This document shows, piece after piece, positions 27,262 to 31,857 of a stretch of DNA of 64,000 nt. Position numbers and translations under genes: made by a program. This DNA comes from Escherichia phage vB_EcoM_F1. The notes beneath the pieces are model-generated. The model had not been told where the DNA came from and searched no databases. It saw nothing but the letters and a program-made list of their open reading frames with translations. Position 1 is the stretch's first letter, and each line of letters starts with the position of its first letter. Where the stretch lies: the sequence record NC_054912.1; one strand, written 5' to 3'.

Positions 27262-27474
27262 TCATTTTTGTCCTGTATTTACTTTATGCCGATGCACGGC
27301 CTTAACTTTATCAAGGTATTTTTCAAAATTTCGCAATCTAGTATAGTCTGCCGGAGATTGGTTGAGTGATACTTCTCGACGCAAAGCTGAAATGATATTT
27401 CCAACTTCCCTACGAATTTCATCTAATTGAAGAACAGTAAGATTGCAAAGTTGCTTTTCAGTTAATTGTAGCAT
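27262..27474 (-). CDS. hypothetical protein (rI.1 position)
   Basis: 70-aa ORF. Confidence 0.5.
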
Positions 27475-27516
27475 ATATACCCCTTTAGTTAGATAAACCT
27501 ATTTATAACTTTTGCA

Positions 27517-28098
27517 CTAACCGAGCTTTTTAGTTAATTCGTTCCAATGTTTTCTACACAAAGAAACATAAATTTCATCACCAATACAGATTTGATTACC
27601 TTCTTTAACTGGTGTTCCATCTTCCATTAATCGAGCTGTCATAATAGCTTTTTTACCACAATGACAAACTGCCTTTAGTTCAATAAGTTTATCTGCAATC
27701 GCCAAAAGTTCTTTAGAACCTTCAAATAATTTTCCAGCGAAATCAGTCCTTAATCCATAAGCCATAACAGGAACATTATATGTATCAACAATTCGGCTTA
27801 ATTGATGCACTTGTTCAGTTTTTAAAAACTGAGCTTCATCTACAAATACGCAATGAATATCTTTTTGTGCTTCAGCCCATTTATAGAACTCGAAAATATC
27901 CATATCATCTGTAATAATATTCGCTTCCTGCTTAATTCCAATGCGAGAAACGACTTCACAGACAGAATCGCGAGTATCAATAGCGGGTTTAAGAACTAAT
28001 ACACTCATTCCACGTTCTTTATAATTATGTGCGGCAGTCAAAAGAGAAGCAGATTTTCCAGCATTCATTGCTGCATAAGTAAAAATTAAACTCGCCAT
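27517..28098 (-). CDS. tk: thymidine kinase
   Basis: 193 aa; P-loop AMNAGKS and C-terminal zinc-binding Cys pairs. Confidence 0.95.
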   Translation of the reverse strand: MASLIFTYAAMNAGKSASLLTAAHNYKERGMSVLVLKPAIDTRDSVCEVVSRIGIKQEANIITDDMDIFEFYKWAEAQKDIHCVFVDEAQFLKTEQVHQLSRIVDTYNVPVMAYGLRTDFAGKLFEGSKELLAIADKLIELKAVCHCGKKAIMTARLMEDGTPVKEGNQICIGDEIYVSLCRKHWNELTKKLG

Positions 28099-28107
28099 AT
28101 CACCTTC

Positions 28108-28293
28108 TTAAAGCGTATTCACATAAGCTATTAATTCATTTTCTTTCTTATCAAACCGATCAGCAAATTCTTCCTGCTGTTCGGGAGATAACGGGCCGTA
28201 TTCATCATAAAAGGTGTTTGCTTCTGTATGCTCATCTAGAAGTTCATGGATAAGCTCAAATAATTTATCTTTTTGTTCTTTACTCAGACTCAT
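28108..28293 (-). CDS. small helical protein (tk.1 position), related to the tandem small-protein family
   Basis: 61 aa, MSLSKEQKDKLFELIHELL... Confidence 0.5.
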   Translation of the reverse strand: MSLSKEQKDKLFELIHELLDEHTEANTFYDEYGPLSPEQQEEFADRFDKKENELIAYVNTL

Positions 28294-28459
28294 ATATTAA
28301 TTTCCAGGAGTTTTAAAATAATTCGCTTTTGCTTAAATATTTCCATAGTTAAATGACCAGTATCTTTTTGACCGATTCCAATGGCAAAACCTTTATTAAC
28401 AGCGAGTTCAATTAAATTATCAAGCTCACGTAACACTTCGTATTGTAACTCAAAACTAT

Positions 28460-28666
28460 TCATTTTGGTTTACCTTCTTTAACGAAATCTGGATAAGGAT
28501 AAAATCCCGAATAAAATCCTTCACCTTTATGATTGATACATCCTTTATTAGAACAATAGCACCAATAATCGAAATCACAAGCCATTTCATCGTTGCATAA
28601 AGCAAAAACAACCGGCCACTTACACTTTTCACAATGGGCATTTTTAAGAATACTAGTTTGGCTCAT
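28460..28666 (-). CDS. Cys-rich small protein
   Basis: About 68 aa with several Cys pairs; start set at the internal Met giving an ATGA overlap. Confidence 0.45.
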   Translation of the reverse strand: MSQTSILKNAHCEKCKWPVVFALCNDEMACDFDYWCYCSNKGCINHKGEGFYSGFYPYPDFVKEGKPK

Positions 28667-28875
28667 AACCATGTCACCTTCAAGCAATATTCTTCTACGT
28701 GCTGTTTGCGACCTTTCTTATCAATAAAGGTATATTCAACGAATGTTCCAATGTAGTCTTTATCTACATCATGTAGACTATTAATTGGGCATTTAGTACG
28801 GCAAATGCGTTCCCATTGACGAATAATTTCTGCTTTGTTTTTAGGATCAAACGGATGCGGGTAATGCACTTTCAT
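28663..28875 (-). CDS. hypothetical small protein
   Basis: 70-aa ORF. Confidence 0.45.
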   Translation of the reverse strand: MKVHYPHPFDPKNKAEIIRQWERICRTKCPINSLHDVDKDYIGTFVEYTFIDKKGRKQHVEEYCLKVTWL

Positions 28876-29326
28876 AATCCACCACTATTAAATCAATATC
28901 AGGAGTAAACATGTCGATTAATTTAGAAACCTTATCCCAATCACCGCCAGCAATACCACAACCTATGCGTGGAATGTAAATTACTGGTTTAAACAAAAGG
29001 GTTTCTGCCTGTAGATTTAATTCTATCATGCAGTTTACTAAAGCACCATAATCAAGATTAGGACCTGGTTCGTATTGCGTATACAAGTTATAACATATGC
29101 CAAAACCATTAGGTTTATGTTTAAAAACAATAGACATATCACCGAGTTTTTCACGCGAACCATATTCAGTAGTAGTTTTATCTATTTCTAAAATTTTAGG
29201 ATAGGCCCTTGCTAATTGACCAGCTACACCACTGCCCATTGTATGAAAACAATTGCATCCATGCGCAATATTTTTACCTTCAGCGAAAAGGGCGACAATA
29301 TCGCCCTTGATATATTTTACAATCAT
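28847..29326 (-). CDS. macro-domain protein (putative ADP-ribose-binding or -processing)
   Basis: 159 aa; GDIVALFAEGKNIAHGCNCFHTMGSGVAGQLARA resembles the macro-domain ADP-ribose-binding motif. Confidence 0.6.
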   Translation of the reverse strand: MIVKYIKGDIVALFAEGKNIAHGCNCFHTMGSGVAGQLARAYPKILEIDKTTTEYGSREKLGDMSIVFKHKPNGFGICYNLYTQYEPGPNLDYGALVNCMIELNLQAETLLFKPVIYIPRIGCGIAGGDWDKVSKLIDMFTPDIDLIVVDYESALPASV

Positions 29327-29670
29327 CTAGTACTCAATCCTCGATTATAAGAATCTACCAAACGGTCAACCATTGAATGACAAGCGGCTTTATCTTTCTC
29401 CTCCGCAACTGAACATTCTAAGGTATTCCACTTTTTAGCATATCGTTTTAATAATGTATCGTTTTTGTATCTGCTTGATTTATCTCTTTCTCCGTCTTTA
29501 TATGCATATATTAATTTCTGTGCAAATTCAGCTTGGCATGCTTTATTTTTCCCACAATAATCTGCCGCAGTGCGGTTTACATATTCTCTAATTTCAGTAT
29601 ATGATGTATCTGCTGACGCAGAAGCAGAAAATGAAATTAATCCTATACATAAAACCAAAATTTTAGTCAT
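29323..29670 (-). CDS. vs: secreted small protein at the T4 vs position
   Basis: 115 aa with N-terminal signal peptide (ILVLCIGLISFSASASA); assignment by position. Confidence 0.55.
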   Translation of the reverse strand: MTKILVLCIGLISFSASASADTSYTEIREYVNRTAADYCGKNKACQAEFAQKLIYAYKDGERDKSSRYKNDTLLKRYAKKWNTLECSVAEEKDKAACHSMVDRLVDSYNRGLSTR

Positions 29671-30208
29671 TTACTATTTCCAAAAGTTTATTATTTTTAA
29701 GGTAATTAGCCTTTTCTAGGACTTCAGAAGCATATTTAGAACCTGCTTTAACATTCCATCCCGAATTATAAGAGGATATTGCTTTTCTTATATCGCCCTT
29801 ATGTATATTTAACCAATAAGAAAGTTCAATGTACGCCCAGGAAGCTGAATTGGATCGTTTATTCAACATTCTTTTTATTTCAGCATCGGTCATATTATAA
29901 CCAAGTTCCTTAACTCTTGCTCGCATAGTAGGCAAATAATTTTGGAACATTCCATAAGCGTGATGCTTTGGTTTAGATTTTAAATTAACTCCGCCAGAGC
30001 TTTCTTGCCATAAAATAGCAGCCATTATATGACCTAATCCGCTCTTGTGGATATTTTTATGTGTTTTATATTTTCCATCCTTAGAAAATTGTTCCCCGAA
30101 TTGATACGCGTAACGCATGTTATCGAGTTGGACATTACTGAAAGTATGCTCGGAGCTATGTGCCATCATTGAAATGGCCAATAGACCAGCGAGTAGTGCT
30201 TTTCTCAT
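29663..30208 (-). CDS. periplasmic lytic-transglycosylase-like protein (vs.1 position)
   Basis: 181 aa; signal peptide and QESSG motif typical of SLT-domain catalytic Glu. Confidence 0.6.
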   Translation of the reverse strand: MRKALLAGLLAISMMAHSSEHTFSNVQLDNMRYAYQFGEQFSKDGKYKTHKNIHKSGLGHIMAAILWQESSGGVNLKSKPKHHAYGMFQNYLPTMRARVKELGYNMTDAEIKRMLNKRSNSASWAYIELSYWLNIHKGDIRKAISSYNSGWNVKAGSKYASEVLEKANYLKNNKLLEIVND

Positions 30209-30215
30209 GCTTACC

Positions 30216-30677
30216 TCATTGAGTTTTAATTACTGCTTTAGAAGCCTTTCCTGGTAAACGACGACTGTTAATAATTGCCATCCTACATTGAAGTGACGGG
30301 TCTTTGAACTTCGCATTAGGTTTACAAACTGTAAATCCAAGCCAAAGATTTCCATCTGTGATTTCTAAACGTCCAGGACGATATTCAACCCCATCAATAA
30401 AATCCTCGTCAATGTCAGGACGCGGAGGCATACTCAGGAATTCATTAACTTCTAAAACATGGTCTTTTATTTTATGGAATAATTCAAAAACGTATGTCTC
30501 ATCAATCTCCCGTTGAATTGCGCGATCAAGAAGATGTTGAGAATATTTTAGATGAAACGATGAGACCCCTGCTGCTTTTGATGCCTCACGAATCTCATTG
30601 TTAATTTGACGAAACTCCGACTCAAAGTGACGACGAAGCTTATTTCGACGGATAAAAACTTCTGTATTGATAGTCAT
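30216..30677 (-). CDS. regB: endoribonuclease RegB
   Basis: 153 aa; matches T4 RegB as recalled. Confidence 0.9.
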   Translation of the reverse strand: MTINTEVFIRRNKLRRHFESEFRQINNEIREASKAAGVSSFHLKYSQHLLDRAIQREIDETYVFELFHKIKDHVLEVNEFLSMPPRPDIDEDFIDGVEYRPGRLEITDGNLWLGFTVCKPNAKFKDPSLQCRMAIINSRRLPGKASKAVIKTQ

Positions 30678-30702
30678 GTTATTCTCCTCTTAACTGATAG
30701 AA

Positions 30703-30737
30703 AAATTATACCACAGTCAAGAGGAAAAGTAAACAGT
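30703..30737 (-). promoter_or_regulatory. T4-type early promoter upstream of regB
   Basis: Minus GTTTAC -35 and TGGTATAAT extended -10. Confidence 0.55.
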
Positions 30738-31057
30738 TATTCTTTAAATCTAATCAATTTATTCATAGACTTTGAAACTTCTGCACGAACCTCATGTAGA
30801 TTTTTGAGCTGTTCAAGACGCTGCTCATAGTAAGCAATTTCATCTTCTTCGAGACAGTCCTGTGAATCTTCTTTAAGATAACGTGCATAGTCCTGAAAAG
30901 CGTTACGAACTACTTCCTGGAAATCATCAAGACTTTGAATTTTCTTAGGAGCAGCAGATACACGACGAGGGGCAGTATAATACTCATAACCAAACCCTGC
31001 GCTTAATTGAGCCATTAGTATTTTTCCTCTGGTTGGAACACAGCACGGCAAGCCCAC
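30737..31057 (-). CDS. hypothetical protein (vs.3 position)
   Basis: 106-aa ORF. Confidence 0.5.
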
Positions 31058-31281
31058 ATACTGGCTTCTTTGAGTTTCGTTTTAGCAATAGTTAACTGAT
31101 CGAGGCTTTCGGCGTAATTCTTCGCGAGTTCATCATCTTCACAGCTATCAAATGCTTCCCAAAATTCATCGTATAAAGCATCAAAGATAAGTCCTAAACG
31201 AACTTCAGCGTCTTTGATAGCATTCACTTTACCGATTTTCTCTTCAGTATGTGGTTTATAACCTTTAATATCTTCAATCAT
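31015..31281 (-). CDS. small protein at the vs.4 position; candidate Acb2-type cyclic-nucleotide sponge
   Basis: About 88 aa from the internal Met with a GAGGAAG RBS; assignment by gene order only. Confidence 0.45.
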
Positions 31282-31495
31282 ATTTGACTTCCTCACCAGT
31301 ACATAAATCATATTCAACTAAACGAATAGGTTCATGAATGCCATATCCTTGAACAGAAATTTCTGTAGTAGGATAAATTCCATTAATATCACCCATGTTC
31401 CATGCTTCGTTAAATTGCTGTTCGCCTGAATTACTAAACCATTCGGCGAAAGCATTTAACACATCTTCAGAACCTTCAATAATTATCTTTGCCAT
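31274..31495 (-). CDS. hypothetical small protein (vs.5 position)
   Basis: 73-aa ORF. Confidence 0.5.
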   Translation of the reverse strand: MAKIIIEGSEDVLNAFAEWFSNSGEQQFNEAWNMGDINGIYPTTEISVQGYGIHEPIRLVEYDLCTGEEVKYD

Positions 31496-31857
31496 TACAA
31501 ACTCTCGGTAAAGGTACGAGCGATAACGTCGCGCTGCTGTTCCGGAGTCAGAGAGTTAAAGCGAACTGCATAACCGGATACACGGATGGTCAGCTGTGGA
31601 TATTTTTCCGGATGCTTAACTGCATCTTCCAGAGTTTCACGACGCAGAACGTTAACGTTCAGGTGTTGACCACCTTCAATTTTAACTGTAGGCTGTTGCT
31701 CAATTTCAATTTCACGGGCATGCAAACCATAGAAAATTTCTGGGTCTACAAAAGAGTCCTCTTTAAAGGTTTTAGAGACAATAATTCGCGCTTGAATACC
31801 ATCTTCAAAATAAATAGTACCTTTATGTGTGCCTTCAAGAATTTGATATGCTTTCAT
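31495..31857 (-). CDS. autonomous glycyl-radical cofactor (GrcA/YfiD-like)
   Basis: 120 aa ending with the glycyl-radical motif [17 protein letters not shown]. Confidence 0.85.

Follow-up and report, generated by a model that had tools for sequence, protein, structure and literature searches.

A divergent tk.4 (adfM) allele in a Tequatrovirus encodes a TARG1-like macrodomain with a putative glutamine-type active site

Which protein does a T4-like phage encode in the short interval between tk.3 and vs, and what could it do during infection? We addressed this question in Escherichia phage vB_EcoM_F1 (NC_054912.1), of which a stretch of 64,000 nt (hereafter the window) was analysed. An open reading frame (ORF) listing returned a 159-aa minus-strand ORF at exactly the interval that an initial annotation, made from the letters alone, had ascribed to a macro-domain protein, and the peptide quoted there corresponds to residues 8–41 of this ORF. 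The window is from a Tequatrovirus; over positions 27500–30700, it shares 100% of its nucleotides with Escherichia phage vB_EcoM_FN and 98.6% with RB3. In RB3, the same gene, placed between tk.3 and vs, carries the annotation tk.4 ('phosphatase'). The gene order also matches that of T4 (tk, tk.1–tk.4, vs, vs.1, regB), where tk.4 is found at NC_000866 60922..61389. Judged by the shared tk.3–vs slot and a full-length BLASTP match to T4 Tk.4 (E 6e-73, 60% identity), the gene is assigned as the positional orthologue of T4 tk.4. The two proteins have their genomic slot, family, invariant residues and first 38 amino acids in common, but they differ in length (155 aa in T4, 159 aa here) and in the overlap with tk.3, which is 4 nt in T4, whereas here the last 29 nt of tk.4 overlap the start of this downstream ORF. 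The features discussed below are collected in Table 1.

Table 1. Positions of tk.4, its motifs and neighbouring features in the window
Feature	Position	Strand	Remarks
tk.4 / adfM coding sequence	28847..29326	-	159 aa + stop; single macro domain
ATGA overlap of vs stop codon and tk.4 start codon	29323..29326	-	sequence read directly
9-bp G+C-rich hairpin, AAGGGCGAT ATT GTCGCCCTT	29288-29308	-	minus-strand mRNA, +19 to +39 of tk.4
Codons 22-26, H-G-C-N-C, first ADP-ribose-site motif	29249..29263	-	H22, G23, N25, C26 invariant
Codons 30-33, M-G-S-G, macro-domain glycine loop	29228..29239	-	alignments
Divergent patch, codons 39-155	28862..29212	-	55% nt, 47% aa identity to T4 tk.4
Codons 80-84, N-L-Y-T-Q	29075..29089	-	invariant Gln84; hhalign, profile-to-PDB, MAFFT
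Codons 119-130, P-R-I-G-C-G-I-A-G-G-D-W, second glycine-rich (diphosphate) loop	28937..28972	-	alignments
Sigma-70-like promoter candidate, TTTACT-17-TATAAT with TG	30705..30733	-	upstream of regB; best of scan
DUF7438 ORF	28108..28293		in replaced tk.1/tk.2 segment
57-aa ORF without family	28290..28463		in replaced tk.1/tk.2 segment
75-aa Cys-rich 'Phage zinc binding domain' ORF	28460..28687		in replaced tk.1/tk.2 segment

Pfam matches on the neighbouring genes were TK (27517..28098), DUF7438, Phage_zn_bind, DUF7202 (tk.3), an SLT domain (vs.1) and REGB_T4, and no other ADP-ribosylating gene was found by Pfam in the immediate neighbourhood of tk.4. Between 28100 and 28683, other ORFs stand in place of the T4 tk.1/tk.2 segment, as is also the case in RB3. 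The vs.1 gene (29663–30208) encodes 181 aa with a hydrophobic, signal-peptide-like N-terminus; its match to the SLT lytic-transglycosylase family is weak (25 bits), and the T4 and RB3 annotations list it only as hypothetical.

The product of tk.4 is a macrodomain. Pfam Macro (PF01661) scored 34.4 bits, above its gathering threshold of 22, and was covered from profile positions 2 to 117 of 118, and PHROG 335 matched at 1.4e-70. AlphaFold2, run with an alignment of 87 homologues, predicted a three-layer alpha/beta/alpha macro fold (pLDDT 94.1, pTM 0.89); this run superseded one on the single sequence, which was discarded (pLDDT 37.9). Both profile and predicted fold thus bear out the domain that the initial annotation had read from the N-terminus. 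Its suggestion of a match to Macro or YmdB families held for the former only: the NCBIfam O-acetyl-ADP-ribose deacetylase model reached 14.5 bits with a cut-off of 291 and the fold neighbours differ, and membership of the YmdB/MacroD deacetylases was rejected. Indeed, the top Foldseek match of the predicted structure was human TARG1/OARD1 (4J5R, E 4e-10), and the family profile scored 73 and 61 bits with BT1257/SCO6735, 66 with TARG1 and 58 with Poa1p. The nearest neighbours in structure and sequence are TARG1, DarG, SCO6735/BT1257 and Poa1p, not the MacroD, viral or PARG types, and Tk.4 therefore belongs to the TARG1-like (ALC1-like) macrodomain class rather than to MacroD/YmdB.

Members of this class differ in their catalytic residues, and the alignments place Tk.4 with one of the two types. 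Invariant in the 87-sequence family alignment are G8, H22, G23, N25, C26, G33, A35, D49, N80, Y82, Q84, P119, G122, G124 and W130. By MAFFT, H22 and N25 correspond to H24 and N27 of Streptomyces SCO6735, and G31 and G33 are conserved in 10 of 10 aligned macrodomains. Alignment by hhalign of the family with DarG, PhiKZ gp104 and TARG1 (probability 99.3%, E 1.6e-20; the TARG1 sequence used is identical to that of the PDB chains) paired NLYTQ84 with NFPTK80 of DarG and LITK84 of TARG1. In agreement with this, HMM-to-PDB and MAFFT alignments also put Q84 in the column of DarG Lys80, TARG1 Lys84 and SCO6735 Gln85. Since an invariant Gln84 occupies the lysine column, the family is without the lysine that DarG and TARG1 use for catalysis. 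Furthermore, A126 of Tk.4 takes the position of TARG1 Asp125, so that the TARG1 catalytic dyad K84/D125 reads Q84/A126. The same Lys-to-Gln and Asp-to-Ala substitutions are present in BT1257 (2FG1/2AFC) and SCO6735 (PDB 5E3B), which are cellular rather than phage proteins and 24–27% identical to Tk.4. With H24, N27 and Q85 of SCO6735 matched by H22, N25 and Q84, the active site is, by alignment, of the SCO6735 type (Gln) and not of the DarG type (Lys). The likeness to SCO6735 has its limits: the DNA-positioning lysines K34 and K89 are replaced by S32 and G88, and the extended mobile loop is absent from Tk.4, whose loop is six residues shorter.

The comparison with DarG macrodomains (M. tuberculosis 5M3I, T. 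aquaticus 5M31 and Thermosipho 7OMU) gave further differences. DarG, a protein of ∼330–340 aa, carries a C-terminal DarT-binding domain that is missing from the 159-aa Tk.4, and it is encoded next to darT, whereas the neighbours of tk.4 are vs, vs.1, regB and the DUF7202, Phage_zn_bind, DUF7438 and TK genes. The NCBIfam DarG model scored 27.8 bits on Tk.4 with a cut-off of 250 (model positions 2–138 of 338), and the PADLOC DarG model scored 29 bits (positions 2–144 of 329). A phage-captured DarG macrodomain was thus rejected, there being no K80, no C-terminal domain, no darT neighbour and only scores far below the cut-offs. PhiKZ gp104 resembles Tk.4 in being a macrodomain that stands alone, is encoded by a phage and counters DarTG2; a 2026 Cell Reports study, in which it was also named AdfM, reported the removal of DarT2 marks from DNA in vitro (PMC13309987). 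Unlike Tk.4, however, gp104 is a close relative of DarG in a separate lineage and has kept the lysine (FPTKDNW). It scored 133 bits with the PADLOC DarG model compared to 29 for Tk.4, and matched 5M3I at E 9e-25 compared to 6e-6. By these comparisons, the Tk.4 family and gp104 are independent recruitments. The name AdfM consequently covers two unrelated macrodomain lineages, the Tk.4 family (Gln-type, 29–36 bits with PADLOC DarG) and the Lys-type gp104.

A phenotype is available for the T4 gene. In a preprint of November 2025, HIDEN-SEQ was applied to a T4 transposon library on DarTG2-expressing E. coli (bioRxiv 10.1101/2025.11.20.689424). On this host, tk.4 was the single hit of the screen in T4, and a clean tk.4 knockout was sensitised to DarTG2. 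The preprint introduces the name adfM, for anti-DarT factor Macrodomain, and proposes, in the wording 'seems likely', that the gene product removes ADP-ribose from DNA. T4 thus needs tk.4 on a DarTG2 host, and the idea of the initial annotation that the protein is a counter-defence enzyme acting on ADP-ribose, with DarT among the systems named, is therefore supported; Thoeris, its alternative, found no support here. This interpretation is essentially the published one, the function being already known from the 2025 work on T4. DarT2 ADP-ribosylates thymidines in single-stranded DNA and thereby stops replication, and the macrodomain of DarG2 reverses the modification (PMC11825919). T-even phages also encode AdfN (T4 30.3), which resembles Tk.4 in being an orphan antitoxin-like ADP-ribosylglycohydrolase that counters DarTG, but which has a NADAR fold, acts on guanine-ADPr from DarT1 instead of thymine-ADPr from DarT2, and lies outside this locus (PMC11825919).

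What a glutamine-type macrodomain can do is known from SCO6735, which efficiently hydrolyses DarT-made thymidine-ADPr on DNA and rescues cells from DarT toxicity (Hlousek-Kasun et al., PMC9411070). All activity is lost in the Q85A and Q85E variants, and a water-mediated mechanism was proposed in which the glutamine positions the distal ribose (PMC9411070). Human TARG1, the closest fold, likewise reverses T- and U-linked ADPr; the TARG1-like macrodomains are the only class found active on these linkages, and among hydrolases, activity on uracil-ADPr RNA was found only in TARG1-like enzymes, SCO6735 included (PMC13036486).

The best explanation overall, and one that we consider probable, is that this tk.4/adfM orthologue encodes a TARG1-like hydrolase that undoes DarT2-made thymidine-ADPr on phage DNA. 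In our best model, which draws on analogy with SCO6735, Tk.4 would be a Gln-type thymidine-ADPr DNA glycohydrolase, DarG-like in its working but outside the DarG family. The protein would be made from the prereplicative regB–vs–tk transcription unit. In a DarTG2 host, DarT2 would ADP-ribosylate thymidines of the single-stranded phage DNA and replication would be blocked; the glycine-loop cleft of Tk.4 would then bind the ADP-ribose, and hydrolysis of the thymine–ribose bond would release free ADP-ribose and restore the DNA. Catalysis would most likely follow the SCO6735 route rather than the lysine route of DarG and TARG1, with Gln84 positioning the distal ribose and the transition state, His22 and Asn25 contributing to the site, and a backbone-held water serving as the proton donor. 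Counting against this explanation are the lysines K34 and K89 of SCO6735, which are not conserved, and the distant similarity to DarG (29 bits, as opposed to 133 for gp104). The genetics were done in T4 by others and the DarTG2 phenotype belongs to the T4 allele only; we infer that it extends to the present allele, which is 60% identical overall and 47% identical over residues 39–155.

Tk.4 might instead act mainly without catalysis, by inhibiting bound DarT2 or by capping or shielding the ADP-ribosylated DNA, which we regard as unlikely. Catalytically dead SCO6735 Q85A, DarG K80A and TARG1 K84A all still inhibit DarT in vitro, SCO6735 most strongly (PMC9411070), and the behaviour of Q85A makes a non-catalytic contribution possible for Tk.4 as well. 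The missing DarG lysine would be in line with such a role, as would our literature search, in which no biochemical work on T4 Tk.4 was found. However, none of the 87 homologues, distant ones included, departs from H22, N25, Q84 or the two glycine loops, and this deep conservation of the active site argues for catalysis over a toxin-specific interface. The single-domain Tk.4 also lacks a DarT-binding domain of the DarG type, and a toxin-specific binder would be hard to reconcile with the spread of homologues over at least 2835 records of phages that infect many host genera.

We consider it very unlikely that Tk.4 is a small-molecule enzyme, either a Poa1p-like ADP-ribose-1''-phosphate phosphatase or one that breaks down ADPr-derived signals or toxic metabolites, with the DarTG2 protection being indirect. 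The RefSeq label 'phosphatase' derives from an old domain name and not from an assay, and the sole known phenotype of tk.4 is specific to DarTG2, a system that modifies DNA. By sequence alignment together with the mutant names in PDB titles, Poa1p H23 is kept in Tk.4 (H22) and S30 is conservatively replaced (T29), but F152 is lost (A126). Nor is Poa1p, at 58 bits, any closer to the family than BT1257/SCO6735 or TARG1.

TARG1-like macrodomains are not known to cleave the arginine-ADPr linkage. Least probable of all is a main substrate in another macromolecule (Alt/ModA/ModB marks, uracil-ADPr RNA or Asp/Glu-ADPr protein), with DarT2 reversal as a side activity: SCO6735 and TARG1 do also act on protein-ADPr and uracil-ADPr RNA, and T-even phages encode the three ADP-ribosyltransferases Alt, ModA and ModB (PMC8120803), but erasure of their marks is unlikely because these enzymes modify arginine. 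Against any such main substrate, tk.4 is conditionally essential only when DarTG2 is present, and no further ADP-ribosylating gene was detected nearby.

The enzyme that we propose comes in several alleles. While the flanking genes (tk, tk.3, vs, vs.1 and regB) are 97–100% identical to T4 at the nucleotide level, tk.4 contains a divergent patch with sharp borders (Table 1). Upstream of it, residues 1–38 show no amino acid changes and seven synonymous codon differences to T4, compared to 62 non-synonymous and 23 synonymous differences in residues 39–155. Such a pattern indicates replacement by recombination, not gradual divergence, as the probable origin of the patch. All family-invariant residues are kept in the window's allele, and its second loop (GCGIAGGDW) is nearer to the family consensus than that of T4 (GAGIGKGNW). 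Compared to RB3, which carries the same allele type, we counted 10 synonymous and three non-synonymous codon changes, suggesting purifying selection on tk.4. At least three allele groups exist among otherwise near-identical T-even phages: the type described here (≥90% identity, 307 phage records), the T4 type (≥90%, 224 records) and a third group that is 80–90% identical to T4 (159 records). The Tk.4 protein of T2 is identical to that of T4. It is conceivable, if rather doubtful, that the ∼350-nt patch marks an arms-race polymorphism in a family that as a whole works by a lysine-free, Gln-based mechanism. If so, the range of substrates might vary from allele to allele (DarT2 variants, uracil-ADPr RNA or protein-ADPr), or the alleles might be unequally vulnerable to a host counter-measure, and the mechanism would be one so far undemonstrated in any viral macrodomain.

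As for its expression, tk.4 is part of a run of co-directional minus-strand genes that are tightly packed or overlapping. The stop codon of vs shares an ATGA with the start codon of tk.4, and translational coupling is possible. Upstream of the tk.4 ATG, a GAG is located at 7–9 nt and a GAGG at 13–16 nt. The best promoter candidate, upstream of regB, could tentatively drive regB–vs.1–vs–tk.4–tk.3. This evidence is weak because the scan of 27400–31600 for sigma-70 promoters and terminators did not return sites above the number in shuffled sequences (15 vs 16.4 for promoters). In T2-infected cells, Tk.4 protein has been detected, and T2 tk.4 mRNA was found together with the host sRNA ArcZ in RIL-seq (bioRxiv 10.64898/2026.06.19.733364). 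A hairpin within the first codons of the mRNA (Table 1) is identical in T4 and retains 8 of its 9 pairs in RB3; on the opposite strand, it is among the sites picked up by the terminator scan. This hairpin may relate to the ArcZ contacts of the T2 mRNA.

The phages with Tk.4 homologues comprise T4-like, Felixounavirus and rV5-like phages as well as phages of Pseudomonas, Vibrio, Acinetobacter and others. Homologues were also present at no fewer than 496 bacterial genome loci, with identities of at most 43%. We inspected the nearest ORF on each side of 61 bacterial homologues (120 ORFs), showing only families that occurred in at least two neighbours. The neighbourhoods were heterogeneous, any one family being limited to at most 6 of the 120 ORFs, and DarT was absent from the 25 most frequent neighbour families, a negative result that is weak because gene calling was crude and only the nearest ORFs were covered. 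Conserved DarT operons, which would have favoured an origin from a toxin–antitoxin pair, were thus not seen among the recurrent neighbours of these 61 homologues, although isolated cases may exist. The heterogeneity is more in keeping with an enzyme that stands alone, as SCO6735 does, than with the remnant of a toxin–antitoxin pair. A minority of the neighbours were NAPRTase (4), NAMPT_N (3) and NADAR (3) genes, which points to possible links with cellular NAD/ADP-ribose metabolism. RNA polymerase Rpb1 domains were matched in 5 of the 120 ORFs.

Existing labels of tk.4 orthologues are inconsistent or wrong, ranging over 'phosphatase', 'Poa1p-like', 'Appr-1-p processing protein', 'putative O-acetyl-ADP-ribose deacetylase' and 'hypothetical protein'. 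One 2026 preprint labels tk.4 'putative thymidine kinase', and the features under the tk.4 match in ECP52 include a 'putative ABC transporter ATP-binding protein'. What our analysis adds to the known function is the Gln-type site that the alignments assign to the family, the double naming of AdfM and the divergent allele. The putative Gln-type site and the name collision matter for annotation and for the design of catalytic-dead controls, for which Q84A would be the choice because Tk.4 has no K80-like residue. Tk.4/AdfM would count among the 'orphan antitoxin' enzymes with which phages remove ADP-ribosylation from DNA. The presence of tk.4 and its allele may help to predict the host range of T4-like phages on DarTG2-bearing E. 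coli, a prediction that is relevant to the choice of therapeutic phages.
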